A stretch of 45,668 nt of DNA from Candidatus Woesearchaeota archaeon (GTDB taxonomy: Archaea > Nanobdellota > Nanobdellia > Woesearchaeales > GW2011-AR9), in NCBI GenBank assembly GCA_016214025.1, contig JACRPH010000006.1, forward strand, positions 1 to 45,668, written 5' to 3'. The notes under the pieces were generated by a model. That model saw nothing but the letters and a program-made list of their open reading frames with translations, ran no database searches and was not told the origin of the DNA. This document shows positions 16,525 through 44,572 of this stretch, piece after piece. A program made the position numbers and the translations under genes. Positions within the stretch are counted from its first letter, which is position 1; each line of letters begins with the position of its first letter.

Positions 16525-16666
16525 TTTGTAGCTATAAAACACAACTACTATTTAAATGTTACTAATTAAATAAGTGTATTTTGTAAAGTACTTATCTAAT
16601 TTTAATAGCAACCCCTCTATGAAACTAAAAATTCCGTTTGGGTAGAGAAACAGCGATTGCATACGT

Positions 16667-28359: not shown

Positions 28360-28444
28360 AATGGTTTTAGAAGTAAGTACTTTATATATTTGGTGTATAG
28401 TATGTCAATAAAGTATATATCTGGGGGGGGCTTTTTGTATTATT

Positions 28445-28789: not shown

Positions 28790-28809
28790 AATAAGGAGGT
28801 AAAGAAAAA

Positions 28810-29016
28810 ATGGAAACACTTGACAGAAAGTTAGGTCTAACAGAAAGTGCAACAAACATAGGAGACTTAAAAACTGAACAAGCACTGGGTAGGTACGCTT
28901 ATTGGAGTACCGAGAGTAGATACGACAAATTAGGCGAAAATTATAGGGGTAGTTCATGTGGTCATTGTGGTGGCAGTTGCCATGGAGATGGTTCTTGTGG
29001 AGGAGATGGTGACTGA
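28810..29016 (+). CDS. Putative RiPP precursor peptide (Cys/Gly/Ser-rich C-terminal core)
   Basis: Strong AGGAGGT SD. 68 aa ending GSSCGHCGGSCHGDGSCGGDGD. Lies 8 nt upstream of a radical SAM ORF. Confidence 0.75.
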   Translation: METLDRKLGLTESATNIGDLKTEQALGRYAYWSTESRYDKLGENYRGSSCGHCGGSCHGDGSCGGDGD

Positions 29017-29024
29017 TTAAACAA

Positions 29025-29597
29025 ATGACTGGGAATATCTCTAAGCGTAGAAGCTTTAGTCTCCAATGGCACATTACGGCCGAATGTGACCAGAATTGTG
29101 CCCATTGTTACGTTACCGACGACAGAACATACCAGCAAGAACTAGAAAACCCCCTTACTCTTGATGGATGTACAAAAGTAATAGATAGCCATATTAAATT
29201 TGCTGGAAAACTGGGCGCAACACCAAATCTTGTGCTAACTGGTGGAGATCCGCTTCTACGCATAGAGATATTCCATTTAGCATATTGGGATTTCTTTGAG
29301 GAGACGTATGGAATTAAAGTTGATGACCTCTTTGATGAGCTCTATAAGAGTCATACCAATAGTGAACAATTCAATTTTTGGCAAATATCTGAATTGCTTC
29401 CAGAATATTATCTTAAGTTGCCCGTGTTTGCTAAATTTAAGTGGAATTTATTTGACCGGGAAACAGGATATCCCTGGATGAAAAAGATGAAAGTGATAGC
29501 AGACCCTTTATGGAAGCGTAAGCCTAGTTTTAGTACATTTATTGTTAGTTTGCATGAGAAATGTGGGTGTCCTTTAAGATTGATTAAGTTCAAGTGA
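29025..29597 (+). CDS. Radical SAM peptide-maturase-like N-terminus fused to an unrelated-looking C-terminus (truncated/chimeric)
   Basis: FSLQWHITAECDQNCAHCY (CxxxCxxC) and LTGGDPLLR. Similarity appears to stop at ~29261. Only 190 aa, with no SPASM cysteines. Confidence 0.75.
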   Translation: MTGNISKRRSFSLQWHITAECDQNCAHCYVTDDRTYQQELENPLTLDGCTKVIDSHIKFAGKLGATPNLVLTGGDPLLRIEIFHLAYWDFFEETYGIKVDDLFDELYKSHTNSEQFNFWQISELLPEYYLKLPVFAKFKWNLFDRETGYPWMKKMKVIADPLWKRKPSFSTFIVSLHEKCGCPLRLIKFK

Positions 29598-29600
29598 ATT

Positions 29601-30740
29601 CTAACAACACTTCTCTTTCTTTTCTTCTTCTGTTGGTTTGGGTGGTATTTCTATCCGAATGTGCATATGGTCGCCGTGGCTTCTGTCGGGATAAAAAGCT
29701 TTACCGTATTTCTGCCATTCTTCTTTCCCATATTTTTCTGTTACGTACTTCTTAAGCGGATAAACATACCGCTGGCTCCAGAAAATGTATTCTATCTCTG
29801 AGCTGGGAGCATCTTGCAATGACTTAACAAATCGCCAATTGGCTTCCAGAGTTTCTAGGGTGAGCATCTTCATTCCTAATCCCCTAAATCCGCTGTGGTA
29901 TTCACCTTTCTCATACCAATAATGTCCTACATCTATGTCTATTCCATAGCGGTGGCTGATGTGCGGAGGCAGTCTTCCTCCCCTTGCGCCACTTATATCA
30001 CCAACTGTAAGTACAGGGTAATTTCCGGAATAGGAATAATACACATTAGTAGCACATGCCGCCAAAGCCACGCTGTTGATTAATTCCACCGCTCCAAATT
30101 TGGCCCAATGTTTTCGGGTGCGCATATAATCCGTATCCGGCATCTCTGCCCACTTTAGATGTTTAAAGTATCGCGATTGGCTGAATGGATTGGGGACTTC
30201 AGTTGGATTTAGTGAATAGCAGATAGCAGTTTTATCTACTGCCTCTTCTACAGCTAGCTCTAATCCTGACAAATCAGGAAAGCCCAACTGCGGCAGTTCT
30301 AATTTAGAAGCAAGTTCATGCAGTTTGTGTTGGGTTAATAATCCTAACGTGGCTGCTTCTACCAAATCATCTGGTGCCGGTTTGCAGGCGCTGGCAGCAG
30401 CAGTTCTTTCGCCAAGCTTTACTGAAGGCTGATAATTGGTATAATAAGCAGTAACACACATACCAGTAATCATACCCATAATTGCGACGGTAGTAAAAGA
30501 AAAGGCGGTTTTTGCCCACCCTGGAGACAAAAAGGATGGAAATGAGAAAGATGTTTTGGTCTTAGGGGCTGGTGTAGGCGGTGGATCATTTTCTTTTAGT
30601 TCCATTTCCCACCAGCGATCTTCATACAATCTCTTCAACTTATCATATTCCTCTCGAATACGCATTACGATCTCACTTTTAGATATTCTTTCAGCTAGTG
30701 AGAGGGGTTCTTGTTTGTAGTTGAGGTTTATCCTAATCAT
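29601..30740 (-). CDS. Membrane-anchored MepA-like (penicillin-insensitive murein endopeptidase, LAS family) zinc peptidase
   Basis: VGDISGARGGRLPPHISHRYGIDID (H-x6-D) and HGDHMHIRI (HxH). TM helix near aa 80-100. Confidence 0.82.
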   Translation of the reverse strand: MIRINLNYKQEPLSLAERISKSEIVMRIREEYDKLKRLYEDRWWEMELKENDPPPTPAPKTKTSFSFPSFLSPGWAKTAFSFTTVAIMGMITGMCVTAYYTNYQPSVKLGERTAAASACKPAPDDLVEAATLGLLTQHKLHELASKLELPQLGFPDLSGLELAVEEAVDKTAICYSLNPTEVPNPFSQSRYFKHLKWAEMPDTDYMRTRKHWAKFGAVELINSVALAACATNVYYSYSGNYPVLTVGDISGARGGRLPPHISHRYGIDIDVGHYWYEKGEYHSGFRGLGMKMLTLETLEANWRFVKSLQDAPSSEIEYIFWSQRYVYPLKKYVTEKYGKEEWQKYGKAFYPDRSHGDHMHIRIEIPPKPTEEEKKEKCC

Positions 30741-31030
30741 CGCCCAGAAAAACTCTTTCGTGAAGAAAAAGTTCCCTAAAAATTAGTTTTTACTGTTCTT
30801 TTATAAGTTTTTTGCATTTGCGGTATATGAATGTGTTGATAAACTGGATTGAGTATAAAGCTGACACCATATTGGTTTGATTTTGTTTTTCAAGAAGCCT
30901 CACTGTTTTTATCATGTTTGAAAGAGTTGCTATAATTCCTAATGCTTCTTTAAAACTTAACGCTAGTGTAATATCTATATCCCCCACTTACTAAAAACAT
31001 ATAAAGCCTCAGTAAACAATTTTAATCAAT

Positions 31031-32488
31031 ATGTGCGGAATAATTGGAATTGTGGGCAGCAAAGACCTGGCTAAAGAGATGTACCGTGGCTTATTGCACT
31101 TACAACATCGAGGACAAGATGCTGCCGGAATCCTTAGCTATGATAAACACCATCCTGAACATGTGAGTGGGGTAAATAGAATAAAACAATTAGGTCTGGT
31201 AAAAAATCTTCTCCCCGAGCTTTCTGAGATAGGTGGAGAGATTGGGATTGGTCAGGTAAGGTACCCAACAATTGGTGAAGGAAAACTACAGGATGCCCAG
31301 CCGTTATACATTACCTCTCCCAATGGAATTTTAGGCATAGCACATAATGGCAACTTGGTAAATTATCTTTCTTTGCGGAAAGAATTAGAACGAGAAGGAA
31401 CCGAAGCTCAGACTAGCAGCGATGTAGAAATTATCCTTAACATCATGGCTAAGAAATATTCTGAACATAACTGCTTGCTAGATAATATCGTTGACAGCAT
31501 TCAAGAAGTATATCAGCGGGTTAATGGGGCATATTCAGTGCTGTGCTTCAACAAAAAGTTAGGAGGATTGATTGCATTCCGCGATCCTAAAGGAATTAAG
31601 CCGTTGCTGTGGGGAAAAAGAACCATTGATGAAAAAGTATCATATGGTTTTGCTTCTGAAGACGAAGCGTTATACGCATTAAAATTTAGGGATGTTCAAC
31701 CGCTTGAGCCGGGAGTAATCGCTATCGTGGATAATCATCGAGAACTGCATTTTAGAAAATTACGCCAAGAAGTACATGCCCATTGCGCATTTGAATGGGT
31801 TTATTTTGCTGGAACCGAAGCACGCTTGGAAAACGTAGGAGTTTACGGAGCAAGAAAGAGATTAGGAGAAGCATTAGGATATCAATTACGAGATAGAAAT
31901 ATCAATGCCGATGCCATTGTTCCTGTTCCGGATACCGCCAGAACTGCGGCCCAATCCCTAGCACAAGTATTAGGAATTCCATTTGAAGAAGGCTTGATAA
32001 AGAACCGTTATATCGGAAGAACTTTTATCATGCCCAATCAAAGAGATAGAGAAACCGCCGTAGGAATAAAATTAAAGCCGGTGCGGGAAGTGTTAGAGGG
32101 AAAAGATATTATCATTGTTGATGACAGCATTGTTAGGGGCACTACTTCACGAAAGATTATCCGTTTAGTTAAAGAAGCTGGCGCTAAAAAAGTATACTTC
32201 GCTTCTACTTACCCTCCGATAGCACATCCATGTTATTATGGGATTGATTTTCAGATGGGAAAAGAATTAATCGCTAATGGAAAAAGTGTGGAGAAAGTTC
32301 GTGCTACTATCGAAGCTGATGGATTGTTCTTTAATACCTCATCTGACTTGAAGAAAGCCATTGGATTAGATGACTTATGTATGGCTTGCGCTACTGGAGA
32401 ATATCCCGCGGATATAAGCGAAGCGAAAAGGCTGGGAGAGTTGAGAGAAATATTGAACGAAAGAACCAGAGGAAGCCAACTTATTTAA
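31031..32488 (+). CDS. purF: Amidophosphoribosyltransferase
   Basis: MCGIIG, LQHRGQDAAG, AHNGNL, CAFEWVYFA, VDDSIVRGTTS, PCYYGID, CMAC. Confidence 0.96.
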   Translation: MCGIIGIVGSKDLAKEMYRGLLHLQHRGQDAAGILSYDKHHPEHVSGVNRIKQLGLVKNLLPELSEIGGEIGIGQVRYPTIGEGKLQDAQPLYITSPNGILGIAHNGNLVNYLSLRKELEREGTEAQTSSDVEIILNIMAKKYSEHNCLLDNIVDSIQEVYQRVNGAYSVLCFNKKLGGLIAFRDPKGIKPLLWGKRTIDEKVSYGFASEDEALYALKFRDVQPLEPGVIAIVDNHRELHFRKLRQEVHAHCAFEWVYFAGTEARLENVGVYGARKRLGEALGYQLRDRNINADAIVPVPDTARTAAQSLAQVLGIPFEEGLIKNRYIGRTFIMPNQRDRETAVGIKLKPVREVLEGKDIIIVDDSIVRGTTSRKIIRLVKEAGAKKVYFASTYPPIAHPCYYGIDFQMGKELIANGKSVEKVRATIEADGLFFNTSSDLKKAIGLDDLCMACATGEYPADISEAKRLGELREILNERTRGSQLI

Positions 32489-32511
32489 ACCCCGACTAAT
32501 TACCTTCTGTT

Positions 32512-32646
32512 ATGATTTCCAATTGTCCAGATTGCGGTAAAACACTTCACGTCGGCCAGCACAAATTTGCTGACGGATTGTTTGAAGTATATTACTGCAA
32601 AGAGTGCGGATTTAGGAAAGAAGAGAAGATAAAAGAAGAGATGTAA
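32512..32646 (+). CDS. 44-aa CPxCG-type zinc-finger microprotein; absent from the ORF track
   Basis: Manual translation MISNCPDCGKTLHVGQHKFADGLFEVYYCKECGFRKEEKIKEEM. Confidence 0.75.
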   Translation: MISNCPDCGKTLHVGQHKFADGLFEVYYCKECGFRKEEKIKEEM

Positions 32647-32649
32647 AAA

Positions 32650-32958
32650 TCAGTGTGTGGCACGATTCAGCATGGCTATCATCTCTGGTGTTCTCTTGCC
32701 TGCAACCAGAAGATGTTTCCTGAAAGAATTTAGCTCATCAATAAAAATCTCTACTCTGTCTTTGGTATAAAATAATGCTTCATCTCCTCTTTGGGAATTT
32801 TGTTTATACACTTGTATACCCCTAAACTCTTGGGCAGTTCTCCCCGCTTCTGTTTTGATAATATTCATTAGCTCTATAAACGAATTCACTTGAGCATCAT
32901 CGATACGGCTGTAGCTCATCCAAGCCATCCGTTCTGGCTTTTTTCTTAACAATACCAT
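32650..32958 (-). CDS. Hypothetical protein
   Basis: ~102-aa ORF with a GAGGTG SD. Confidence 0.65.
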   Translation of the reverse strand: MVLLRKKPERMAWMSYSRIDDAQVNSFIELMNIIKTEAGRTAQEFRGIQVYKQNSQRGDEALFYTKDRVEIFIDELNSFRKHLLVAGKRTPEMIAMLNRATH

Positions 32959-33002
32959 TTCATCCACCTCTTTCTGTTTTGTTTAATATTGCTTAATTAA
33001 AT

Positions 33003-34293
33003 TCACATCAACCCTTTGGGCATTTTCCCGCTCATCTTCCGCATCATCTTGGAGATATCTTTCTCGCTTTTGAACATCTTGACCATCTTCTTGGCCAGGC
33101 GATACTGCTTGAGTAATTCTCGGATATCGGTAACTTTAACTCCTGAACCGGCTGAAATGCGTTCAATCCTATCCGCATTAATGAGCTCTGGCTCTTCTAA
33201 TCACTTCCAGAGCATCTTTAGGCAGTTTTAATGAGCCCATGCCCGGAATCATCTCCAGAATCTTGCCGAAGGAGCCCATCTTCTTCATGGATTTCATCTG
33301 CTGGTACAGATCTAATAAATTGAAATCTCCTTTGAGCAGTTTCTTCTCCAGGTCTTTGGCATCTTCTTCGGTAATAACTTCCCGGGCTTTTTCCAGCAGT
33401 GATTCAATATCTCCCATGCCGATTAATTTGCCCACGAATCTCTGCGGATGGAATAATTCCAGCTCATCAATCTTCTCTCCTACACCAATGAAAGTAATAG
33501 GGGCATTAGTTACTGAGCATGCAGATAAAGCTCCGCCGCCTTTAGCGGTGCCTTCTAATTTAGTTACGATGACTCCAGTTACGTTACAAGTATCGTGAAA
33601 AGCCTGGGCCTGTTTTTGCGCCGCTTGTCCGATATCAGCTGAGATAACTAACAAGCGCTCGTCAGGCTGCGCCGCTTTATTGAGCAGATTTAATTCTTCG
33701 ATAAGTTCTGATGACAACGCATCTCTTCCTGCCGTGTCAATTATCACTACATCATATTCAGAAAGCTTGGATTGGAATGAAGAGTAAATCTTTAACGGAT
33801 CTTTGCTTCCTTTAACTCCCAGAAAATCTACGCCAACAGCCTTGGCTAACTGCTCCAGCTGTTCATAGGCTGCCGGTCTCCACGTATCAGTCTGCATTAC
33901 TGCTACTTTATATCCCCTTTTGCGGTAGAACTTGGCTAATTTTCCGACACTGGTTGTTTTTCCCGATCCGAAGAGCCCCACCAGCATTATCTGTGTCGGC
34001 TTTTTCCCTACTTTGACTTCATGAGCTTCTTTCCCCAGAAAGTTGGTTAATTCTTCGTAAACGATAGTTATTAATTGCTCTCTTTTGGTTATGCCTGGAG
34101 GAGCAGATTCTTTAGCCCGCTCTTTGATTTTGGTGGTTAAGTTGAATACTAACTGGACATTGGTATCGGATTGAAGCAAGGCACGTTGAATATCTTTAAC
34201 TAATTCATTGATGAGCTTATCATCTACAAATACAGCTTTGGTTATTTTCTGCAGGGTGTTCTTCAATGATTCACCGAGTTTTTCCAGTACCAT
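33003..34293 (-). CDS. srp54: Signal recognition particle protein SRP54, frameshifted at ~33201 by an apparent deletion
   Basis: GLFGSGKTT, DTWRPAA, DTAGR, TKLEGTAKGGGALS. The M domain resumes out of frame as LEEPELINADRIERISAGSG...MPKGLM*. Confidence 0.93.
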
Positions 34294-34356
34294 GGTTTAA
34301 GTGAAAAAGAATATGATTATATAAAAGTTATGGGGAGGAATGAAGAAAATTATAAC

Positions 34357-35523
34357 TTAATACCCCACCACCATCACCACTCCCAGAATGATGGTTATAA
34401 CACACAAAACTATATTCAGCACTTTTACCTGCTTCTTTTTCCACAGCCATTGCCCTTTCACGCCGGATTCTTCACCTGATTCCCTAATCCAATATACCAG
34501 CCAGCTTAGGGCAACCATTAATGCAATAGTGAGCAATACATAAAACACCAACACCGCAAACACCGTAATATTAAACTGCTGTCCCAGCAAGTAGCTTAAC
34601 CATTCCGCATATACTTTATGCGCCCCAGCAAAGCTGAATAGTCCGACCACTATTCCGATAATCATAGTTCCTAAGCCAGAAAATAACTTATCCAATTTCT
34701 GGTTGTATTCAACATGTTTATGATGAGCCATTCCCTGGAACAATTCTTTGCCCGAGAAAGCATGGCGAAGCAACAACAGAGATAATATCATCATAATTAT
34801 TCCTATTGTTTTAGAAGCATAATAACTTACTGCCTCAATTCCGAACCAAGAGAAAAACCCAGAGCCAAACACTAAATAAGCGATTAATATCCCAAAGGTA
34901 AACGTCAATGCCCGCTGCAGCACTACTTTTCTGCTCTTGCCGCTTATTCCGACTACTGCCATTATGCTAAGTAATATTCCAACCACCCCCAAAAATCCCG
35001 GACTGAAATAATTATTAATTGCTCCGCCGATTACCCGCACCGGTGTTAATGATTCTAAAATTGAACATGGCGAGCTTTTTCCCACGATTCCGGCTACGAA
35101 CCTGGACTCTGCTGCCGGACAGGCAGAATTGTTATTTTCAACCAGATGATTTTCTAACATTTCCCGAATGGGCTTCTCACCGATAAAATAACCGGTAGAA
35201 GTAAACACCACTGGAACTCCTTGCGAAGTTTCGGGGATTCCATAAGCTTGATAGAATGATTGCATTTCAGCATAATGTTCTGAATTATAATATACTTCCG
35301 CTTTCTTAACTGTGAGTTCAGGATGCACTTCCATCAACTGATCCATAAAAGCTTCAATGCTTACTGCTTCTTCGCTGTTTCTTCCATAGAAGTAATAGAT
35401 ACAATCAGAATAAAGGGAAGCATCGGAAGAGACCTCTTCAGCCACAGCCACATTAAATAGTATAGCTGCTATTAACATACGTATAATCCACAGTACTAAC
35501 CACTTGTGCAGCATCTTCACCAT
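34357..35523 (-). CDS. Thioredoxin-fold + CcdA/DsbD-like multi-pass membrane protein (degenerate)
   Basis: Signal peptide, CIYYFYG..., GVPVVF...YFIG (cis-Pro motif), then about six TM helices. Confidence 0.6.
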   Translation of the reverse strand: MVKMLHKWLVLWIIRMLIAAILFNVAVAEEVSSDASLYSDCIYYFYGRNSEEAVSIEAFMDQLMEVHPELTVKKAEVYYNSEHYAEMQSFYQAYGIPETSQGVPVVFTSTGYFIGEKPIREMLENHLVENNNSACPAAESRFVAGIVGKSSPCSILESLTPVRVIGGAINNYFSPGFLGVVGILLSIMAVVGISGKSRKVVLQRALTFTFGILIAYLVFGSGFFSWFGIEAVSYYASKTIGIIMMILSLLLLRHAFSGKELFQGMAHHKHVEYNQKLDKLFSGLGTMIIGIVVGLFSFAGAHKVYAEWLSYLLGQQFNITVFAVLVFYVLLTIALMVALSWLVYWIRESGEESGVKGQWLWKKKQVKVLNIVLCVITIILGVVMVVGY

Positions 35524-35640
35524 TTTTGTATCTCTGTGCCTACGTTTTCTTCAAAAGCATGGAATATTTTAAATACTTTTTCTTTTAATTCTGATTTAGG
35601 CTTGGAGGAGTATATAAATTGATATCCTCCTTTTTCTAAA

Positions 35641-37017
35641 TTAATCCGTCCTTCGGGTCAATTCTCTAGAGCGAGGCTGAGTACGGATATCCCTGTAGCG
35701 AGGAGGAGCTCGGCTGCCAAATGAACCCCCCGAACTTCTGGAGTTATAGCGGTTACCTCCACTAAAATCCCGTGGACCTCTGAAATCTCTTTGGCTTCTA
35801 AAGCCGCGCTCACCAAACCTCTGTCCACCAAACCGAGACGGCTCTCGGGAACGGACTTCAAATCTCAACCTGGGGAAATCCTCCAGTGGAAGCTCTTTGA
35901 TATCCAAGCGGTAACGGTCAAAAATCTGGCCAAATACCTGATAATCCTTATCACTCAGTAAAGTAATCGCTTTTCCGCTTTCTCCCGCTCGGGCAGTTCT
36001 TCCAATCCGGTGGATATATTCCTGGGGGTCAGGTGAAAGATCGTAGTTAAAGATGTGGGTTATGTTCTTAATGTCTAACCCACGAGCAGCTACCGGCGAG
36101 GCTACCAACACTTTTATTTTATCATGATTAAATCTATCAATTACCTGTAATCTTTTGCTTTGCGTCATCTTGCCGTGAATCATCTCCGCTTTAACGCCCT
36201 GATTACGCAAATTAGCAGTTAACAGCTCTACCGTAGAGCGGGATGAACAGAAAATTAACACTCGGTCCATGACATCCAGATTTGCCCTATGTTCAGGGTT
36301 TAAAGGCACCGCTGTTTCTTTTTTAAGCAAGTGCACTAACAACGAAAACTTTTGGTTATGAGGAATGTTATAATAATACTGCTCTAACAATTCCTGTTTA
36401 ACATATTTGTCGGCTTCCGCGACTTCCGGGTTATGCATGTAATCCGCTTTAAGATGATCAATCTCGCAGGAGATAGTCGCTCCAAACAACAACATCTGCC
36501 GGCGCTCCGGCGTTTGGGACAATATTTTTTCTACGTCTTCAATAAAGCCCATTTCTACCATTTTATCGGCTTCATCCAGCACAAAACAATTGATGTGAGA
36601 GAGGTCTAAATTTCCTCGCTGTAAATGGTCTAACATTCTCCCGGGAGTTCCTACTATGATATCTGCTCGGGCCATATCTCCGATTTGCGGACCTAAACCT
36701 ACACCGCCATAAACAGTAGCGATGTGACATCGCTTATACTTAGAAAACTTTTTCAGTTCGCTAGATATTTGTACTGCTAACTCTCTGGTTGGGGTTAGGA
36801 TCAAGGTCTGCAATCCTGCTCTTGGTTTTATATTTTGGATTATAGGTGCACCAAAAGCTACGGTTTTTCCCGAACCGGTAAACGACATTCCAATTACGTC
36901 TTTCCCGGCGAGGACTAAAGGAATAGCTATCTCCTGAATCTTGGTCGGCTCGGATATTCCCTCTTCCGCCAAGGCTTTTATTACTTCTGCATTTAAATTT
37001 AGTTGTTCAAATGACAT
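35641..37017 (-). CDS. DEAD-box RNA helicase
   Basis: Q motif PTKIQ, TGSGKT, PTRELA, TPGR, DEAD, ARGLD, HRIGRTAR, RG-rich tail. Confidence 0.96.
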   Translation of the reverse strand: MSFEQLNLNAEVIKALAEEGISEPTKIQEIAIPLVLAGKDVIGMSFTGSGKTVAFGAPIIQNIKPRAGLQTLILTPTRELAVQISSELKKFSKYKRCHIATVYGGVGLGPQIGDMARADIIVGTPGRMLDHLQRGNLDLSHINCFVLDEADKMVEMGFIEDVEKILSQTPERRQMLLFGATISCEIDHLKADYMHNPEVAEADKYVKQELLEQYYYNIPHNQKFSLLVHLLKKETAVPLNPEHRANLDVMDRVLIFCSSRSTVELLTANLRNQGVKAEMIHGKMTQSKRLQVIDRFNHDKIKVLVASPVAARGLDIKNITHIFNYDLSPDPQEYIHRIGRTARAGESGKAITLLSDKDYQVFGQIFDRYRLDIKELPLEDFPRLRFEVRSREPSRFGGQRFGERGFRSQRDFRGPRDFSGGNRYNSRSSGGSFGSRAPPRYRDIRTQPRSRELTRRTD

Positions 37018-37178
37018 GTTTTTATCTCCTGAATAGATACTTTAATTGAAATCAGTACTGATCTCTAAACCCTTATGGGGGAATTATAAGTTGAAACAGA
37101 ATGAGCGTTACTTGGTAAGGACCCCCTGTTTCGGCCTATTCATATATTATTTTATTTTTGTAGGGGCGAGTTTATAAA
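37018..37178 (-). promoter_or_regulatory. TATA box and long, potentially structured 5' leader of the helicase gene
   Basis: TTTATAAA at 37171-78. Nested complementary segments 37030-36/37136-42 and 37093-99/37126-32. AGGAG SD is adjacent. Confidence 0.45.
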
Positions 37179-37295
37179 GCTTTGGGTAGGAAATTTAATT
37201 TGTTAGTGATTAATAGTAAGGAAGTGGCAAAGACTTATCAGAATTATTTTGATTTTTTTGGAGACTGGCGGAGAAGTAAAGTGCATGATGTAGAT

Positions 37296-37682
37296 TTACT
37301 CTATCTCTCGCGGATCTTTGCACTTCAAGTTTGTTATCGTAGGAAACACTGTGTCTGTGCTTACGAGAATATCGTCATAAATCAGCGCAAATGCTACATG
37401 TACCGAATCAAAGATATTTAGCCGAGGAAAGCACTGCATCAATTCCTCACTTTTGCCTAAGACTCTTTCATCCAAAGGCAATAATTGGATATTTAACTTT
37501 CTAATTGTGGGCAGAACAGAGAGAGCTTCTTCGCGGGAATACTCGCGCTCCAATACGATTCTTGCTTCTATAACTGTAAACACGGAAGTGGTTGCCGGCC
37601 TAAGCTTAGAGAAGTTTACATGCTCTTTTAGCCAGTCCTCTTTTTTGACCAGCGCCAGAATGATGTCAGTATCAAGATACAT
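37296..37682 (-). CDS. vapC: PIN-domain (VapC) toxin
   Basis: MYLDTDIILAL, TVIE, FDSVHVAFA, IVSTD-like motif. Confidence 0.88.
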   Translation of the reverse strand: MYLDTDIILALVKKEDWLKEHVNFSKLRPATTSVFTVIEARIVLEREYSREEALSVLPTIRKLNIQLLPLDERVLGKSEELMQCFPRLNIFDSVHVAFALIYDDILVSTDTVFPTITNLKCKDPREIE

Positions 37683-37896
37683 GCGTTAACTTACCTCTCC
37701 TCAGCCCTTCTTTGATCTCCTCGTAAGCGTAGTCCTCTGCACGATGATGAGTTCTTCTGGACATGAGTACTATTAATCGTGCGCCAAACTTAAGAGCCTC
37801 ACTTCTACTGGTAAATTCTCCCTCATCTACAAGAGTATCGATTTCTTGTGCTAATCCCATCGGCAAGGCCACCGGAACTAATTTTCGCTTTAACAT
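37672..37896 (-). CDS. Ribbon-helix-helix (CopG-like) antitoxin
   Basis: VPVALP...IDTLVDEGEFTSRSEAL. Overlaps the PIN gene. Confidence 0.82.
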   Translation of the reverse strand: MLKRKLVPVALPMGLAQEIDTLVDEGEFTSRSEALKFGARLIVLMSRRTHHRAEDYAYEEIKEGLRRGKLTHVS

Positions 37897-38045
37897 GTAT
37901 ACTATAATATACAACTGGTATATAAATATTTAGGTGCAGATGTGCAATTCCTTCCATCAAAACAGCCACAACTCCATCAGTCTTATAAAGCAAAGTATTA
38001 TAAACATTGCCACAGTTAAGTATTTATCTTGGTTAGAGGTTAAAA

Positions 38046-38375
38046 ATGGTAACTGAACTAAATGACAAAAACTTTAACAAAACAATTAAATCTTCTATAC
38101 CCACAATTGTAGATTTCTGGGCAACTTGGTGCGGTCCCTGCCAGATGCTTACACCGGTATTTGAGCAGCTGAGCAAGGATAAAGAATTTGAAGGAAAGTT
38201 AAAATTCGCCAAGTTATCTACTGAAGAGCATCCTGAAGTGGCTGAAACCCAGCATATTACTGGAATCCCTTGCTTGATTGTATTCAAGAACGGAGAAGAA
38301 GTGGATAGGATCATTGGCTTTTACCCAGCTCCGGCATTGAAACGGAAGATTGAAAGCGTGCTGGGAGAGATTTAG
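38046..38375 (+). CDS. trxA: Thioredoxin
   Basis: VDFWATWCGPC, GIP. GAGGT SD. Confidence 0.96.
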   Translation: MVTELNDKNFNKTIKSSIPTIVDFWATWCGPCQMLTPVFEQLSKDKEFEGKLKFAKLSTEEHPEVAETQHITGIPCLIVFKNGEEVDRIIGFYPAPALKRKIESVLGEI

Positions 38376-38440
38376 GAGACAAATAACCTCTATTCTTCAT
38401 CTCCTAAATTCTTATAAACGTAAATTAATCTCGTCTTTCT

Positions 38441-39328
38441 ATGCCACAAAATATTATCGCTTTGCTCTACGATTTCGATTCTACTCTTAGCCCGGAATGC
38501 ATGCAGGAAGCGTTGTTTAAAAAGTATAACGTTGACGGGAACACTTTTTGGGCTGAAAAGCGCGGGCTGATGAAGAATGCCGAAGGCAAAGGAGTAAATT
38601 ACGATACGGAATGTGCGTATATGAATCTTATCCTGCGCTACATCCGCGAGGAAAAATTCCCACCATTGTCTAATTTAGAGCTGCGGGAGTTAGGAAAAGA
38701 AGTTGCATTGTATCCAGGACTTCCTGATTTTCTGCCCAACATCAAAGAGAAAACCGAAGAGAAATATGATGCAGAAGGAATAACTTTAGAGCATTACGTC
38801 ATCAGTACTGGATTAACCGAAATGATAAAAGGCAGTGCCGTAGGTGAATATCTGGAAGAGATTTTTGCTTCGGAGTACAATACTGATGGAAACGGCGTTA
38901 TCTGTGAAATCGCCCGAGCAGTAGGTCACACCAAGAAAACTGAATTCCTGCATTTAATCAACAAAGGCGGGAATAAAGATCCAAGTATTGATGTGAATGG
39001 GATACTGCCGCGAGAACTGAGAAGAATTCCGTTTGAGAATATGGTTTATATTGGAGACGGGCCCACTGATGTGCCTTGTTTTGCTACGTTGAATCATCGC
39101 GGAGGAATAAGCATTGGTGTGTACAATCCTTCTTCTGAGGATGCGTTCCGGAAGGCTTACCAATTAAGAGAGCAAAAAAGAGTGTTCAGCTTTGGCGAAG
39201 CCGATTATCGTGAGGGAAGCCATACTTACAGGACGATTTTACATGCGGTCACTGGAATCGCTGAAAGAATTATCGGCGAGCAGGATGAAACGCAACGAAA
39301 AGGAAGAAGGGAAGGGCCAAGGTTGTAG
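38441..39328 (+). CDS. HAD-superfamily hydrolase
   Basis: YDFDSTL, ISTG, K, YIGDGPTDVPC. Confidence 0.88.
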   Translation: MPQNIIALLYDFDSTLSPECMQEALFKKYNVDGNTFWAEKRGLMKNAEGKGVNYDTECAYMNLILRYIREEKFPPLSNLELRELGKEVALYPGLPDFLPNIKEKTEEKYDAEGITLEHYVISTGLTEMIKGSAVGEYLEEIFASEYNTDGNGVICEIARAVGHTKKTEFLHLINKGGNKDPSIDVNGILPRELRRIPFENMVYIGDGPTDVPCFATLNHRGGISIGVYNPSSEDAFRKAYQLREQKRVFSFGEADYREGSHTYRTILHAVTGIAERIIGEQDETQRKGRREGPRL

Positions 39329-39721
39329 TTAATACAACTCTAAATTTAGCCCTCTTATCCTAGAAAAATCTTTAACATTACGGGTTAGCACGATTTCATT
39401 CTTAATCAATGCAATGCCTGCAATCATGCAATCTATGACATCTATACCTTTTCCGTCTTTTATCAAAGAGCCATCAATTTCTCCGCCTTTCTCGGCAGAG
39501 TCAGAATCCAAGTGCACTACCAATTGTCCACCCAACGTTTTCATGATTTTGTTTCTTTCTTCTACCGGCTTATTACATCTTGCTAACCCGCTAAATAATT
39601 CAAATATGGTTAAAGCAGTTACCGACTGTGGCTCATTCCTTCTAATTAATTCCTGCAATTTTGCTACTGCTCTTTCATCATTATGCATCAAATCGATTAT
39701 AAAAGCAGTATCAGCAATCAT
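39329..39721 (-). CDS. vapC: PIN-domain (VapC) toxin
   Basis: MIADTAFIID, TIFEL, DCMIAGIAL, TRNVKDF. Confidence 0.92.
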   Translation of the reverse strand: MIADTAFIIDLMHNDERAVAKLQELIRRNEPQSVTALTIFELFSGLARCNKPVEERNKIMKTLGGQLVVHLDSDSAEKGGEIDGSLIKDGKGIDVIDCMIAGIALIKNEIVLTRNVKDFSRIRGLNLELY

Positions 39722-39951
39722 TTTAACCTTTCTGCCGTAGCGTCTACCCTATTTCTCATTCTCTTGCGAAGCCCTTTTACATTAGAGCTAAGTTCCACTG
39801 CTTCTTTATCTGATAGTACGCCAACTAGATCTAACATGGAGTTGTGCCGCGTAAGCTTAACAATAACTTCACTAAAGCTTTCGCCCGGCTCTTTGGATAT
39901 GGCTAACCTTTCGTAGGCATCATTCGTAATAGTTATGCATTTGGTGGACAT
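39718..39951 (-). CDS. vapB: VapB antitoxin (archaeal DUF217-like)
   Basis: TKCITITNDAYERL...ESFSEVIVKL. ATGA overlap with vapC. Confidence 0.88.
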   Translation of the reverse strand: MSTKCITITNDAYERLAISKEPGESFSEVIVKLTRHNSMLDLVGVLSDKEAVELSSNVKGLRKRMRNRVDATAERLK

Positions 39952-40026
39952 AACTGGTAAATACATATACATATATTTAAAGGTTGCGTTATTTTTGAAG
40001 GGGTAATTTACTTTCCACTGATTAAG

Positions 40027-40800
40027 TCAACTTGTCGTCATCTCTAGTTCTTGTGCTATTTTTATGAGATCCAGTAATCTATTTTCTCCCAGCGGCAGCA
40101 TTAATTCTGCGCTCTCTGCGGGGGTTCTTTCATGAAGCATACTGTGCGGATTGACATAATTGTGCAGTACTTTGCACAGTGTCGAGGTTGCCTGCGCTCC
40201 CTCATGTGTTTGAAACACATTCAGCGCATCAAATCTTCTGCTCGGTTCTCGATTGTGTCTTTCCACAGCATTGTTATTATGCTTTAATCCAAATTTTTTA
40301 CAAGCAATAGGCACACCAAACTTCATTTTGGTGATTCTGTAAAATAATTTTTTCCATACAGCCTTGTAATTTCCAAATTTATCGGAGACGAACACAATTA
40401 TTTTTCTTTTTTCCACTGGCTTTTTCAATTCTTGCTCATACTGTTCCAGCATCTGCTGATAACACCACTTTTTAATTTGCTCAAGGAAAGCTACACATAC
40501 TTTCAATGTTCGTTTTATGACGACAATTTCCGCAAGAACAAACTTTGTTTTACTATCAATAGCAGTCAGCCGATATTCCCAATGATTTTTTACTCTGGTG
40601 TATTTTTCATCAAAATGGATACGCCCCTTAATCTTTGGAGTACCGAATTTCGGCTCGTTTTTTTTAAGAGATGGGTGTACTTAATCAGCCATTTCCTTAT
40701 CGCCCATCGAGTTACTTTAACACCATCATGTTGCTTATCTTTATAAATAAACCACTGCACCAAGAAAACAGCCTTTCCTTAAGTGGGAATAGCAGTTGAA
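40027..40800 (-). mobile_element. Degenerate IS1/IS6-like DDE transposase with a -1 frameshift site; 5' part decayed
   Basis: HTH fragment QHDGVKVTRWAIRKW, an A8C slippery run (40657-40665), then -1 frame IHFDEKY..AIDSKTK..VSD..NNNAVERHN..YVNPH..TPAE. Confidence 0.78.
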
Positions 40801-40983
40801 ATAAGCCCAAGTAAGCTTAGAATAAACTTAGACCTAAAAATAAGAGCTTAAAAACCTATCCTTTTATTGGATAAAAATACTCGACGTACGAACGTCTCGT
40901 AATATCAAACGCACCGATTGAATCAAATCGCCTCGTTTTTTATTACGATTACTTTGTGCGTTTGATATAATGGAGGAATAAAA

Positions 40984-42279
40984 ATGGCTAAAACCAAAGA
41001 GCACATAAATTTAGTATTTATCGGCCATGTTGACCATGGAAAGTCTACTACGGTAGGCAGGTTGCTGTATGACTCCGGAAATATTGATGAGCAGGCGATG
41101 AGAAAGCTGAAAGAGAAAGCCGAGCAGCTAGGCAAGAAAGGGTTTGAGTTTGCTTTCGTTATGGATACCCTTAAAGAAGAGCAGGAGAGAGGAGTTACCA
41201 TTGATTTGTCTCATAAGAGATTTGACACGGACAAATATTACTTTACTATAATTGATGCGCCGGGGCATAGGGATTTCATCAAGAACATGATAACCGGAGC
41301 ATCCCAAGCTGACTGCGCCGTGCTGGTAATTTCCGGCAATACCGGTGATGGGGTGCAAGCACAGACTATTGAGCATTTAAAGCTATCTAAAATATTTGGC
41401 GTAGGCCAATTGATAATTGCAGTTAATAAGATGGATATGGTAGACTTCTCTGAGAAGAGGTACAATGAAGTTATAGCGGAAGCCAAAGTACATGCTAAGC
41501 AGGCGGGCTGGAATATAGACAAAGTAAAATTCTTGCCTATGGCGGCGCAGGTCGGCGAGAATATTACTAAGAAAACCACTAAGATGCCGTGGTGGACTGG
41601 CGATTGCTTATTGGAAGCGATTAATAAGTTTGAGGTTCCTCAGAAGCCAGTTAATCTGCCGTTGAGAATGCCGTTGCAGGATGTGTATAATATTACCGGC
41701 ATTGGTGTAGTTCCGGTGGGCAGAGTTGAAACCGGTATTATGAAAGTAGGCGATAAAATCATCTTTGTTCCGGGAAGAGAAGGCAAAGGCGTTCACGGAG
41801 AGGTTAAGTCTATTGAAATGCACCATGAGGCTATTCCATTGGCTGAGCCGGGGGACAATGTAGGGTTCAACGTGAGGGGCATTGCCAAGAAAGATGTAGC
41901 CCGAGGAGATGTGGTAGGGCATGAAACTAACCCCCCTAGTGTAGCTACTGAGTTTACGGCTCAGGTGGTTATCTTAAATCATCCTACGGTAGTTACGGTG
42001 GGGTATACTCCTGTATTTCACATCCACAGTTCACAGGTAGCGTGCCAGTTTGTAGAGATTATTAAGAAGATTAATCCTACTAGTGGTGAAGAAATCAAGG
42101 AAGATAAAGACATCCTTAGAAACGGAGATGCGGCCGTGGTTAAGCTAAGGCCGGTACAGCCGGTAGTGATTGAGAAGAACACTGACATCCCGCAGATGAG
42201 CAGATTTGCCATCAGGGATTCCGGACTAACTGTGGCTGCAGGCATGTGCATAGATATGGTCAAGAAACCCATGCAGTAA
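40984..42279 (+). CDS. tuf: Translation elongation factor aEF-1alpha
   Basis: [47 protein letters not shown]. Confidence 0.98.
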
Positions 42280-42381
42280 AGATTTAATTTTGATTTTATT
42301 ATAATTTTTATCATCAGGGTGAATGAAAAAGGCACGTTAAAACAGATTTTTATCGTGTGGTAAACAAATACAATAACTACA

Positions 42382-42693
42382 ATGGCACAACGGGCAAGAA
42401 TCAAGCTGGCGAGTACGGATATTGATAAGATTAATCAAATCTGCGGCGACATTAAGGATATTGCTGAGAAGACTGGAGTAGAATTGAAAGGCCCGATTCC
42501 ATTGCCTACCAAGAAACTTAAAGTTACCACCCGAAAATCTCCCTGCGGGAATGGAAAAGCCACCTGGGAGCGCTATGAGATGCGGATTCATAAACGATTG
42601 ATTGATTTGAGTGCTGATGAGAGAACGCTTAGGCTGGTGATGAGGGTGCCGATACCTGAAGGGCTTAACATAGAAATTGAGATGGTGGGGTAA
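42382..42693 (+). CDS. rpsJ: 30S ribosomal protein uS10
   Basis: GPIPLPTKKLKVTTRKSPCGNG, MRIHKRLID. Conserved tuf-rpsJ synteny. Confidence 0.97.
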   Translation: MAQRARIKLASTDIDKINQICGDIKDIAEKTGVELKGPIPLPTKKLKVTTRKSPCGNGKATWERYEMRIHKRLIDLSADERTLRLVMRVPIPEGLNIEIEMVG

Positions 42694-42701
42694 GATAATC
42701 A

Positions 42702-42950
42702 TTAATTGTTACTTAAAATTTCTTCTAACCTTATTCTGTAACCTACCACTCTTGCTAGTTCTTTTGAAATTCCTATTTTTTGACAAAACTTTGAAAACCA
42801 ACGATTATTATCATAACATCTAACAAGAGTTTTGATATCTTCTACCTCTTTATGCCTTGCCTCTCGGTAAAATCTCTCAACTTCTTTAGAATAAATTCTA
42901 TCTCCTTCATACTTCGCTGCCATCATTTTTCCACTAAAATATTGAAACAT
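42702..42950 (-). CDS. Hypothetical protein
   Basis: 82-aa AT-rich ORF with no recognised motif. Confidence 0.5.
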   Translation of the reverse strand: MFQYFSGKMMAAKYEGDRIYSKEVERFYREARHKEVEDIKTLVRCYDNNRWFSKFCQKIGISKELARVVGYRIRLEEILSNN

Positions 42951-43086
42951 ATACTCTTAATTTAACCTGTTTTAATAAACTTTATGAAAGATTTAAACTA
43001 TGTTCTACGAACTATATATCACATATGCCAAAGTTTAATAAATTAGTGAGCATAATAAACTGAAATCAAAGATAGGGGGTGTTAAA

Positions 43087-43386
43087 ATGGACAGGAAAAG
43101 TCCTTCCGAATTGGGGGATTTATTGGATCAAATAGATGCTGCACCATTATTGTATGTTAGTAATGATAACATTCCGTACGAAGGTTCTTTTGGTGCTTGT
43201 GTAAGTTGTGGTGGAAAATGTTATAACGGGTGTAAAGCAACAACCGTCTCAGAAATAGAATATAACCTTCCGAACAGACAACCTTCCTTAGATAGGCAAC
43301 AACAGGGTGATAGGGAGAAGATGAATGAGCGCACTAACTTGGATGAGAAAACTGAACGAACACCTCCTTACTCAACAAAAAAGTGA
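43087..43386 (+). CDS. Putative RiPP precursor peptide (leader / Cys-Ser-Gly core / follower)
   Basis: GGGGGTG SD and upstream TTTAATAAA. Core GSFGACVSCGGKCYNGCKATTVS. Lies directly upstream of, and overlaps, ycaO. Confidence 0.7.
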   Translation: MDRKSPSELGDLLDQIDAAPLLYVSNDNIPYEGSFGACVSCGGKCYNGCKATTVSEIEYNLPNRQPSLDRQQQGDREKMNERTNLDEKTERTPPYSTKK

Positions 43387-44572
43387 TCTTACATCATTAG
43401 TTGAACAATTACTGGTCTTACCGATAACAGGTAAATTACAGAAAACTCGTCCATTTAATGATGAGCCTAAATTTATTCAGTATTTCTGCTTGAATGAAGG
43501 AAGATCAGAAGAAGATACAGGTAGCGGGATATTTTTTAATGATGAGATAGCAAAGTTAAAAGCTTTAGCAGAAACCGTGGAGAGATCTGCTTTAGGAGAA
43601 GTTCCTTTAGAACTCCCTTACACCACATATCTCCGGTTAGGTTGTTCTGCAGTAAATCCGTTCTTATGGCATAATTATTCACAAGTTAACGATTTATCAA
43701 CTATACAAAATACACCCCATTTGCCAACTCATTGGACAAAAGCCAAAAACCTTCTTACAAACCAAGAGGTTTTAGTTCCGACGCAATTAGTATATGTACC
43801 CTACACTTTTAGGAAAGAAGAATTAATGCTTTGTGATCCTGTAAGTACGGGAGCAGCTTTTGGTACCTCTTGGGAAGATGCAGTGAAAAGAGGGATACTG
43901 GAATGTGTTGAGCGCGATGCCTTTATGATTAGATATTTTAAGAAAGATAAAGTTCCTCGAGTTACGCATCCAGTAATAGAAGAACTTTCCTCTTATTTTG
44001 CAAGATATCAATTGGAACTGAATATTTTTGATCTTACTAATGATTTAGATATACCTGTAATGTTAGGAATAGTTATAGATAAAACAGGGATAGGTCCAGC
44101 AGTTTCAGCAGGGTTAAAAGTTGATGAAAATCCACTTAATGCCGCGCTTGGAGCAATGCTGGAGGCTCAACATGTAAGGTCCTGGATTAGATTTTCCTAT
44201 CATGCCCAAGGAAAGCCACAAATCCACAATCCGTCTCAAATTATAGATTTAAAGACACGCGGTTTCTATTGGTATGACTTGAGTATGATAAAGCATCTCG
44301 ATTTTCTATTAGAAAACTCAGAAATCAAAGAGATAAGCGGTGAATCATCAAAAGTTAGTTTTAATTTTCTTCTTCAATTATTAAAAGACAAAGAGTATCA
44401 TGTCTTTGGTGTAGACATTAGCCCAGAAATTCCAATAGGCACTGTTGCTAAAGTGCTGATTCCTGAACTGCAACCACTCCGATTGGTTGAATCTCCAGAT
44501 ATTTACACAAGTAAAAGACTTTACGAAAGAGGCATATCAAATTTAAACTCAATTCCCCACCCTTTCACATGA
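43325..44572 (+). CDS. YcaO-family ATP-dependent cyclodehydratase
   Basis: AETVER, STGAAFG, ILECVERDAF, MLEA, C-terminal PHPFT. Confidence 0.93.
   Translation: MSALTWMRKLNEHLLTQQKSDLTSLVEQLLVLPITGKLQKTRPFNDEPKFIQYFCLNEGRSEEDTGSGIFFNDEIAKLKALAETVERSALGEVPLELPYTTYLRLGCSAVNPFLWHNYSQVNDLSTIQNTPHLPTHWTKAKNLLTNQEVLVPTQLVYVPYTFRKEELMLCDPVSTGAAFGTSWEDAVKRGILECVERDAFMIRYFKKDKVPRVTHPVIEELSSYFARYQLELNIFDLTNDLDIPVMLGIVIDKTGIGPAVSAGLKVDENPLNAALGAMLEAQHVRSWIRFSYHAQGKPQIHNPSQIIDLKTRGFYWYDLSMIKHLDFLLENSEIKEISGESSKVSFNFLLQLLKDKEYHVFGVDISPEIPIGTVAKVLIPELQPLRLVESPDIYTSKRLYERGISNLNSIPHPFT

Follow-up and report, generated by a model that had tools for sequence, protein, structure and literature searches.

LAP/TOMM clusters in which a YcaO protein is combined with a nitroreductase, a peptidase and an adjacent precursor are described for CPR bacteria in the available part of Sharrar et al. 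(2020; PMC7298704). Archaeal counterparts are the haloazolisins and thermoacidophisins, in which the C-D cyclodehydratases are either fused or discrete and the cores Ser-rich or Tyr/Gly-rich, and heterocycloanthracin is made by a fused C-D enzyme that depends on an Ocin-ThiF-like F protein (available part of Cox et al. 2015; PMC4603692). Among the radical SAM (rSAM) systems, the ranthipeptide and sactipeptide maturases (PapB, model NF047865; StsB; AlbA) are rSAM plus SPASM enzymes with a Cys-rich precursor. The ACGX system is represented by the model TIGR04340, and its partner we take, from the NCBIfam description, to be an ACGX-repeat peptide; no mention of TIGR04340 or of the ACGX-repeat system was found in the literature searched.

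The window, i.e., the whole stretch of 45,668 nucleotides analysed here, belongs to a genome of 1.43 Mb that is 97% complete and in which no match to McrA was found, and the label 'DPANN-type' used in the first-pass annotation agrees with these properties. The window very probably contains two distinct RiPP loci, each of its own class, that are alike only in a short Cys-Gly core. Both clusters are of already known kinds and the result is ordinary; three points are of modest use, namely the archaeal LAP cluster, the invariant SCGGxCY core and the rSAM module under loss.

The YcaO cluster and peptide B

Peptide B (43087..43386, + strand, 99 aa) is encoded as first quoted (MDRK..LGDL..YEGSFGACVSCGGKCYNGC...) and consists of the leader LGDLLDQIDAAPLL, the core GACVSCGGKCYNGCKATT and a conserved follower, EYNLPNRQPSLDR. 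Its end is overlapped by the start of the gene for a putative YcaO cyclodehydratase (43325..44572, + strand, 415 aa, YcaO domain only), for which a nearly invariant Met7 at 43343 may be the alternative start. This protein matched PF02624 with 155 bits and the SagD-family model TIGR03604 with 175.7 bits, the latter being under the cut-off of 219.25. The motifs ExxER, ERD and C-terminal PHPF were invariant in 12 homologues; motifs of the ExxER/ERD type presumably bind ATP. The best fold matches of the AF2 model (pLDDT 84.6) were LynD, MusD and TruD, the nearest solved structures, all of them azoline-forming; the TM score with LynD was 0.75, the 415-aa protein covering LynD's YcaO half alone. The YcaO stop codon is overlapped by the start of a SagB-type FMN dehydrogenase gene (44569..45309, + strand, 246 aa), the product of which yielded 130.5 bits with TIGR03605 (cut-off 78.4) and 64 bits with PF00881. 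The PF02624 and TIGR03605 scores bear out the initial reading that B abuts a YcaO gene and a dehydrogenase gene, and the precursor beside these enzymes is rich in Cys, Ser and Thr.

On the opposite strand, the contig end truncates a C39-like cysteine peptidase, of which the last 123 aa are retained (45296..45667, - strand). The fragment reached 22.2 bits with PF13529 (cut-off 24), and the full 232-aa homologue, which occupies the same position in the locus of the closest relative (L030), reached 41.5 bits; this protein is presumed to be the leader peptidase. In L030 the cluster is complete, with precursor, YcaO, SagB, C39-like peptidase and an MFS exporter; the contig of the window stops before the point at which the MFS pump is observed in the relative. 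No E1-like C protein, Ocin-ThiF-like F protein or other RRE partner was found in the full L030 cluster, and the best TIGR03603 match in the host genome (39.1 bits, cut-off 187.65) was equalled by the controls from E. coli and B. subtilis. The specificity of this partner-less YcaO could be looser than assumed.

Peptide B very probably serves as precursor in a minimal cluster of the linear azol(in)e-peptide type. As predicted from the gene content, YcaO with ATP would activate backbone amides next to Cys (possibly Ser/Thr) of the SCGGxCY core to form thiazolines, which the SagB flavoprotein would oxidise to thiazoles; the C39-like peptidase would cut off the leader, a plausible cleavage point being behind the Gly-Ala that immediately precedes the core, and the MFS pump would export the finished peptide.

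Compared with the CPR LAP clusters as presented in the available part of PMC7298704, locus B shows the same gene set and order (precursor and SagB/nitroreductase adjoining YcaO, plus a peptidase) and likewise occurs in a small-genome, uncultivated host. A small-genome archaeon has the YcaO-nitroreductase-peptidase cluster type noted earlier in those bacteria, a likeness of gene content and order; besides the archaeal host, the lack of an E1-like or RRE partner is counted as a difference. Locus B shares with the haloazolisins and thermoacidophisins the archaeal host, the YcaO-based type of cluster and the B-protein dehydrogenase, but its cyclodehydratase is a YcaO domain alone, also unlike the fused C-D enzyme of heterocycloanthracin, and its core is SCGGxCY (available part of PMC4603692). 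Heterocycloanthracin/sonorensin precursors (TIGR03601) and B have Cys/Gly-rich cores for a YcaO cyclodehydratase plus dehydrogenase in common; TIGR03601 gave weak matches of 14.9-17.9 bits, all below the 35-bit cut-off, in three of five scanned peptides of the broad B family, and no match to peptide B itself (P0002).

The homologue search with peptide B yielded five relatives (P0005-P0009). Of the 80 metagenome YcaO loci, 21 encode a CGGxCY peptide immediately before YcaO and in the same orientation, and 65 contain SagB; the peptide occurred in 20 of the 28 loci with a YcaO identity of at least 33%, and in 1 of the 52 below that value. Of nine additional YcaO loci in genomes of the phylum, three showed the same kind of core, and the source names of the YcaO relatives include Shapirobacteria (CPR) and Aenigmarchaeota. 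The B family is wider than the A family and its SCGGxCY core is invariant; because this core stays constant across enzymes diverged to 33% identity, it suggests a conserved product and not a hypervariable antibiotic.

Peptide A and its truncated radical SAM neighbour

Peptide A (28810..29016, + strand, 68 aa) is also present as quoted before (METLDRK..IGDL..YRGSSCGHCGGSCHGDGSCGGDGD), with the leader METLxxK...RYAYW and the core SCGHCGGSCHGDGSCGGDGD. By direct reading, a purine-rich, Shine-Dalgarno-like stretch lies just 5' of its ORF and of that of B. The A family is small and has the leader motif (R/K)YxYW; the homologue search yielded two relatives (P0003 and P0004). Relatives of A adjoin full-length rSAM/SPASM genes in two loci: in L007 two A-type peptides are followed by a 355-aa enzyme (TIGR04340, 325.1 bits, model positions 3-340 of 341), in L017 one A-type peptide by a 341-aa enzyme (332 bits). 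A Cys-rich small ORF directly upstream of rSAM was seen by eye in six of seven further loci of the phylum (L111-L117), four of these six ORFs having the leader motif [YF]x[YFN]W.

Directly upstream of A lies a gene for a small protein of 114 aa with a DUF5763 Cys motif (28445..28789, + strand; PF19067, 27.3 bits, cut-off 26.3). A homologous ORF was found at the same place in L007 (7646-7966; 41% identity in tblastn) and none upstream of the A-type peptide of L017; the protein may be a regulator or else be outside the system.

The gene order around both peptides bears on the idea that A and/or B are small zinc- or metal-binding microproteins which adjoin the enzymes by chance. Their four to five Cys at CxxC-type spacing could bind metal, and the long conserved non-core C-terminal part of B (EYNLPNxQPSLDR) would not normally be expected in a precursor made up simply of leader and core. 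However, the peptides keep their place immediately before the gene of the cognate enzyme, in the same orientation, down to 33% identity for YcaO and down to 31% for rSAM, and such conserved gene order usually marks a precursor with its maturase; moreover, no zinc-finger family of Pfam or NCBIfam matches A or B. The microprotein explanation is accordingly judged very unlikely, and A and B can both plausibly be regarded as RiPP precursors, each adjoining a maturase of a different chemistry, as had been proposed.

The statement that A abuts a radical SAM gene held for one part of the adjacent ORF only: in 29025-29597, residues 1-87 match rSAM and the remaining 105 match nothing. The first 87 codons (29025..29285, + strand) are the remnant of an rSAM/SPASM maturase; they include the cluster motif CDQNCAHC as well as GGDPLLR and share 75% identity with the 355-aa L007 enzyme over its residues 5-87, and TIGR04340 covered residues 10-85 only (51.9 bits). 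Fused to this remnant is an in-frame tail of 105 codons (29286..29597, + strand), for which no match was found elsewhere in the genome, in L007 or in 60 relatives. No further rSAM sequence was present in any frame of 28300-31000, and the only other full-length rSAM/SPASM match of the genome lies on another contig (C29), is 32% identical and stands in a different gene context. Independent contigs, assembled from four runs of a single study, span the break junction, and two of these runs carry no flag as a potential source; the contigs of runs X3 and X4 cross it with 0 differences. Since the break leaves the maturase gene only its first 87 codons, peptide A in the host genome is most likely an orphan, unmodified or decaying, and the locus appears to be an ACGX-like rSAM peptide module caught while being lost.

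Regarding the intact members of the family, TIGR04340 was the best model, matching over the full length (325-332 bits), and a Cys-rich peptide lies directly upstream, as in the ACGX system. The scores nevertheless stay under the 400-bit cut-off, direct reading of the core of A shows no ACGX repeat, the window enzyme is truncated with no full-length SPASM copy at the locus, and no NCBIfam peptide model matched peptide A at E values up to 1. If they act like other rSAM/SPASM peptide maturases, the full-length enzymes of the relatives would cross-link the Cys-rich A-type core, probably by thioethers. Candidate sites are two CxxD units in the invariant tail SCHGDGSCGGDG, which we take to resemble the thioether motifs between Cys and Asp in the substrates of PapB. 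The A-family maturases share rSAM plus SPASM and a Cys-rich precursor with the ranthipeptide and sactipeptide systems but reached just 69-85 bits with the PapB model (cut-off 340), and the A-type cross-link is a prediction. The second-best NCBIfam model for these maturases was SbtM (203 bits), named as a thio(seleno)oxazole-modifying rSAM, which hints that this rSAM clade has an evolutionary connection to azole peptides.

Comparison of the two precursors

The first-pass annotation had proposed one dispersed hybrid system, in which A and B would have diverged within a single precursor family and would be guided to rSAM and/or YcaO enzymes by their related leaders. Overall similarity favours this proposal: BLASTP aligned A and B with an E value of 0.001 (17/58 identities), the Smith-Waterman score of 47 (shuffles, 24.2 +/- 4.4) was reached by 4 of 2000 shuffles, and hhalign with the full profiles gave a probability of 63% (E 7e-05). 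In addition, both ORFs are intact and lie on one contig, and the pattern C..CGG.C occurred in 2 of the 21,979 six-frame ORFs of at least 30 aa in the 1.43-Mb genome, these two being A and B. Separation of leader and core, however, showed that the signal resides wholly in a 12-column Cys-Gly core. Core-only hhalign gave an E value of 7e-07 over these 12 columns; leader-only hhalign gave a probability of 0.1% and an E value of 0.48, and shuffling of the B leader columns left the score unchanged (27.9 +/- 0.5; the observed 27.97 was reached by 20 of 60 shuffles). The chance resemblance that had been conceded at the outset does not account for the core, the likeness of which exceeds noise, and may apply to the leaders, where the observed score was marginal (reached by 98 of 2000 shuffles). 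Since the core match is nontrivial in both its E value and its uniqueness in the genome, the two cores may be related by common descent or exchange.

Neither homologue search retrieved the other family, the two relatives of A and the five of B showing no overlap. As a query in its own genome each peptide found itself alone, and the B profile gave five matches among 1.84 billion proteins, all B-type and none A-type. The elements thought to be shared are not conserved in the alignments as judged by eye: DRK was present in one of five A-type and one of 22 B-type rows, GDL in one of five A-type rows, and YxGS in the two window peptides only. None of the 16 B-type peptides carried the A leader motif and none of the 6 A-type peptides that of B; these counts are purely descriptive because the motifs were defined post hoc. 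Disjoint homologue sets and unconserved motifs are the outcome that the first-pass annotation had itself named as speaking against its proposal.

The neighbouring maturases are distributed independently. Among 401 genomes of the phylum, rSAM was counted in 8 and YcaO in 10, with none shared (the host genome, G000, has YcaO, and its rSAM remnant fell below the rSAM threshold); intact rSAM and YcaO thus occur together in 0 of 401. Two genomes (G004 and G032) have A and rSAM and lack both B and YcaO. In the 80 YcaO loci, tblastn found the A peptide in none and an ACGX-like rSAM in one, weakly and with 25% identity. In the window itself the rSAM is truncated, and A and B are parted by 14 kb of housekeeping genes, including purF-like, SRP54-like, helicase, EF-1alpha and S10 genes (translations, by eye). 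A single family is consequently given a very small probability, and the attractive claim of one precursor family matured by two chemistries is removed as unsupported; profile comparison with leader and core separated, a table of neighbouring maturases and a check of maturase integrity provide a way to test claims of this kind.

The core likeness could also be read as convergence or exchange with cross-talk, the leaders being unrelated and the common SCxxCGGxC(H/Y)G core allowing the acquired YcaO and SagB to act on the orphaned A. Such activity would explain why A, with a good ribosome-binding site, is intact after its maturase was broken. The host genome alone has the YcaO cluster among the seven of its genus, the YcaO is without a dedicated leader-binding partner, and the cores align as stated above. 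On the other hand, the relative P0004, which comes from another assembly, shares its core with peptide A, so that the A core is not specially adapted in the host genome; YcaO enzymes of the LAP type normally need their own leader, and the rSAM truncation may just be recent. Cross-talk through a common core is therefore considered very unlikely. Highly improbable, too, is the version in which a horizontally acquired, partner-less YcaO/SagB pair heterocyclises A, which is kept for that reason, after core exchange or by functional cross-talk between RiPP classes; if true, it would make peptide A a naturally occurring example of a precursor that changes its maturation chemistry.

Peptide A and the truncated radical SAM gene

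Peptide A (P0001) is encoded by an ORF of 68 aa (28810-29016, + strand) and peptide B (P0002) by an ORF of 99 aa (43087-43386, + strand), each with a purine-rich ribosome-binding stretch upstream. Both sequences were exactly as quoted in the first-pass annotation, which had described them as one apparent precursor family with two maturation chemistries. Both ORFs and the likeness of their cores stood, but the single family did not, and the assignment of both peptides as RiPP precursors was the sole part of the interpretation that was upheld. The peptides belong to two separate loci of known kinds, of which the A locus is defunct; the 14 kb between them hold ordinary genes (identities by eye from translations).

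Among 5.8 billion proteins, two relatives of peptide A were found (P0003 and P0004), and the conserved features of the alignment were the initial MET, (R/K)YxYW and the tail SCHGDGSCGGDG. At L007, a relative's locus, the surroundings are like those of the window, with an AbrB/MazE-like gene (319 aa) and a DUF5763 small protein preceding the peptide; two A-type peptides are followed there by a full-length radical SAM (rSAM)/SPASM enzyme of 355 aa, which scored 325.1 bits on TIGR04340 (positions 3-340 of 341; cut-off 400), with SbtM (TIGR04082, 203 bits) as the runner-up model. An enzyme identical to that of L007, together with two A-type peptides, was found in G004, a genome of the window's genus, and in G032 (another genus of the same family) one A-type peptide lies immediately 5' of an enzyme of 341 aa (332 bits). 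Within the sample of 401 genomes of the phylum, 8 encoded an ACGX-like rSAM enzyme (E up to 1e-50); a Cys-rich small ORF was located immediately 5' of the rSAM gene in six of the seven new phylum loci, and the leader motif [YF]x[YFN]W was recognized by eye in four of those six. Because of this synteny and the enzyme matches in L007, G004, G032 and the phylum loci, peptide A is regarded as the predicted precursor of an ACGX-like rSAM/SPASM maturase family. The locus is, however, no strict member of the ACGX system of NCBIfam, as the relatives' enzymes score below the cut-off, peptide A was matched by no peptide model and its core is without ACGX repeats. No relevant literature was found on the ACGX system/TIGR04340 or on SbtM.

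The second A-type peptide of L007 (L007:8438-8629) keeps the leader METLELK...RYAYW and has a degenerate core ending in CSFCEGEDINDLHYQA. A weak match of the A profile in another genome (L018 in G001) was dismissed as a chance match, since none of the genes of the A locus had a match there.

The ORF 3' of peptide A encodes 190 aa, of which only residues 10-85 were matched by radical SAM models; the best was TIGR04340 ('radical SAM/SPASM domain protein, ACGX system') with 51.9 bits. Identity with the L007 enzyme was 75% over residues 6-88, the sequences being divergent thereafter. The reported radical SAM gene next to peptide A is therefore present as an N-terminal match, but the rest of the enzyme is missing; tblastn in all frames of 28300-31000 detected no further rSAM sequence. 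The rSAM remnant runs on in frame into an open tail of 105 codons (29286-29597), whose 105 residues had no match in the window's genome (G000), in L007 or in 60 relatives. The junction near 29285 is spanned with zero differences by independently assembled contigs of four runs (one study), including two runs not flagged as a possible source, X3 (28930-29369) and X4 (29013-29447). Because these independent contigs bridge the junction, the truncation is real DNA and no artefact of this assembly. Radical SAM enzymes are not expected to function as a fragment that has CX3CX2C and lacks most of the barrel and the SPASM domain.

Elsewhere in the genome, only one full-length rSAM/SPASM match was found; it lies on contig C29 in an unrelated context (L009:67-3608), a module of a DegT/PseC-like aminotransferase, a 68-aa ORF, the 347-aa rSAM/SPASM protein and a 371-aa weakly U32/TrhP-like protein. 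This enzyme was considered as a stand-in maturase for peptide A and rejected, given an identity of 32%, about equal scores on the NirJ2, AhbD and ACGX models (158-171 bits) and its position between the aminotransferase and the U32-like gene.

Peptide B and the YcaO cluster

Five relatives of peptide B (P0005-P0009) were found among the same 5.8 billion proteins, and a profile of the B set returned five proteins from 1.84 billion representatives, all of them B-type. The alignment is conserved at LLDxIDAAPL, C(V/L)SCGGKCYxGCKA and EYNLPNxQPSLDR; over 22 B-type rows, only SCGGxCY and one leader Asp were invariant. The follower EYNLPNxQPSLDR (43255-43296, residues 57-70 of peptide B) is kept in the close relatives P0005-P0009 and could serve in recognition or as a second cleavage site. 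The wider B family ends instead in a short amphipathic-looking tail, e.g. GLAKKVEDFLDK or SKLAEMVESVLG. No NCBIfam or Pfam model matched the precursor, and the likeness of its relatives to heterocycloanthracin/sonorensin was sub-threshold (14.9-17.9 bits vs a cut-off of 35). A metagenome scan with the B alignment gave 595 pattern matches and zero confirmed relatives. P0006 and P0011 share an equal longest contig value (8403), as do P0007 and P0012 (2995), a hint that the members of each pair are perhaps encoded on one contig.

Peptide B does abut the two enzymes that had been named beside it: a YcaO protein of 415 aa (PF02624, 155 bits) follows 3' and then a SagB-type dehydrogenase of 246 aa (TIGR03605, 130.5 bits vs a cut-off of 78.4), the ends of the three reading frames overlapping. 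A set of 80 metagenome loci was fetched with the alignment of YcaO homologues, more than 250 bases of upstream sequence being present in 72 of them. In 21 of the 80, YcaO is immediately preceded by a CGGxCY peptide encoded on its own strand (16 distinct peptides), namely in 20 of 28 loci with a YcaO identity of at least 33% and in one of 52 below 33%; SagB was present in 65 and a C39-like peptidase in five of the 80 loci. The closest locus, L030 (YcaO 65% identical), comprises a 103-aa precursor, YcaO and SagB; its opposite strand encodes an MFS transporter as well as a 232-aa C39-like peptidase (PF13529, 41.5 bits). In the window, the peptidase gene (45296-45667) is cut off by the end of the contig.

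The YcaO motifs ExxER, ERD and C-terminal PHPF were invariant in the alignment. The AF2 model (pLDDT 84.6) matched best the YcaO half of LynD, MusD and TruD (TM 0.72-0.75), followed by thioamide-forming YcaOs and McbD. No E1-like or RRE domain was found in the YcaO protein, and a partner of this kind was found neither in the cluster nor, above cut-off, in the genome. A complex prediction for YcaO with the B family scored 0.01, a value that speaks neither for nor against binding. In three phylum loci (L121:473-1021; L122:2696-3250, - strand; L125:2747-3328, - strand), YcaO is immediately preceded by a conserved ORF of roughly 182-193 aa, which in L121 and L122 stands between precursor and YcaO. 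Neither the window nor L030 has this ORF, a possible candidate for the leader-binding partner that the YcaO lacks.

The evidence on YcaO, SagB, peptidase and transporter makes an azoline/azole route the most likely one for peptide B; enzymes and synteny were observed, and from these the chemistry would begin with ATP-dependent cyclodehydration of core Cys to thiazolines by YcaO. The thiazolines would then be oxidised by SagB, after which the leader would be cut off by the peptidase and the product exported. The SCGGxCY core is invariant (L030-L051, L061, L085; window 43087-43386) while YcaO diverges to 33% identity. Since the cores of RiPP antibiotics usually vary, this invariance suggests a conserved product or target.

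PMC7298704 describes clusters of the same type in CPR bacteria, made up of YcaO, a nitroreductase, a peptidase and a neighbouring precursor; of the 110 clusters, spread over 93 genomes, 89 have the nitroreductase adjoining YcaO. SCGGxCY-type precursors may already be contained in the precursor listings of PMC7298704 and PMC4603692. Archaeal YcaO and rSAM RiPP clusters, DPANN included, have been counted bioinformatically (PMC12144867).

Resemblance of the peptides and distribution of their enzymes

BLASTP of peptide A against peptide B gave an E value of 0.001 (17/58 identities). The local alignment score of 47 was reached by 4 of 2000 shuffles of B (24.2 +/- 4.4), and among 21,979 six-frame ORFs of the whole genome (at least 30 aa) C..CGG.C occurred in two, A and B. 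When only the leaders were compared (A 1-47, B 1-35), the observed score was reached by 98 of 2000 shuffles. Comparison by hhalign gave a probability of 19.5% over 11 columns with small alignments and of 63% (E 7e-05, 35 columns) with wider ones (5 A-type, 22 B-type); leader-only comparison yielded a probability of 0.1% (E 0.48) and core-only comparison an E value of 7e-07 over 12 columns. The observed score of 27.97 was reached by 20 of 60 runs when the B leader columns were shuffled (27.9 +/- 0.5) and by none of 60 when all B columns were shuffled (10.1 +/- 3.6). Because of these leader-only, core-only and column-shuffle comparisons, the profile signal is read as entirely core-derived.

The shared CxxCGGxC core thus resembles between A and B beyond chance, as judged from sequence and within the core only, but it is invariant in neither family: the first Cys is missing in 4 of 22 B-type rows and CGG in 3 of 5 A-type rows. 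The other proposed family motifs, DRK, GDL (in A) and YxGS, were confined to the window's own copies, and homologue searches did not retrieve the other peptide, the A and B sets being disjoint. The match could stem from convergence between two cores rich in Cys and Gly, from an ancient exchange of cores or from cross-talk; cross-talk or exchange is considered very improbable.

Neighbouring maturases and genome co-occurrence likewise showed separate distributions. Peptide A was found in none of the 80 YcaO loci, and an ACGX-like rSAM in one, weakly (25% identity, 3.8 kb off, other strand). The B profile gave nothing credible in the 60 relatives (best E 0.05), among which the only YcaO matches were three distant copies, all in a single genome from a different family. 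G004 and G032 contain peptide A with its enzyme, B and YcaO both being absent; the B and YcaO searches were likewise empty in the genome of L007, where an empty answer carries little weight. Of the 401 phylum genomes, rSAM was present in 8 and YcaO in 10, with an overlap of zero. Because these distributions of A/rSAM and B/YcaO are disjoint, the evidence speaks against a single dispersed system. The case for acquisition of the B cluster is solely its absence from the 60 relatives searched; its GC content (0.36-0.38; window range 0.29-0.43) gives no compositional sign of transfer.

Just upstream of distant YcaO genes and on the opposite strand, a 127-aa Tyr/Gln-rich protein is encoded (L086:1449-1832 and L087:2222-2605, both - strand); its C-terminus, GCGSCGGGCDSCSGGDDDDGC, is a Cys/Gly/Asp tail similar to that of peptide A.

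Genome and other genes of the window

The genome comprises 1.43 Mb in 85 contigs, one of which (C83; 45,668 bases) is the window in full, and is estimated to be 97% complete; genomes of the phylum sample are about 1 Mb each. McrA had no match in the window's genome, methanogen controls being positive in the same search. The small genome, the absence of McrA and the genome sizes of the phylum sample are compatible with the 'DPANN-type' assignment of the first-pass annotation.

At 3788-7456 and 16667-20272 (both - strand) lie genes for two proteins, each about 1200 aa long and with S8 subtilase as well as PKD domains; the stretch between them holds type I restriction-modification genes (HsdR, 8054-11092; HsdM, 14758-16542; both - strand). 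The truncated rSAM ORF is adjoined by a gene for a 379-aa Peptidase_M74 protein (penicillin-insensitive murein endopeptidase; 29601-30740, - strand; 33.8 bits vs a cut-off of 25). This is a bacterial type of cell-wall hydrolase in an archaeon, and its target may be a bacterial host or neighbour.
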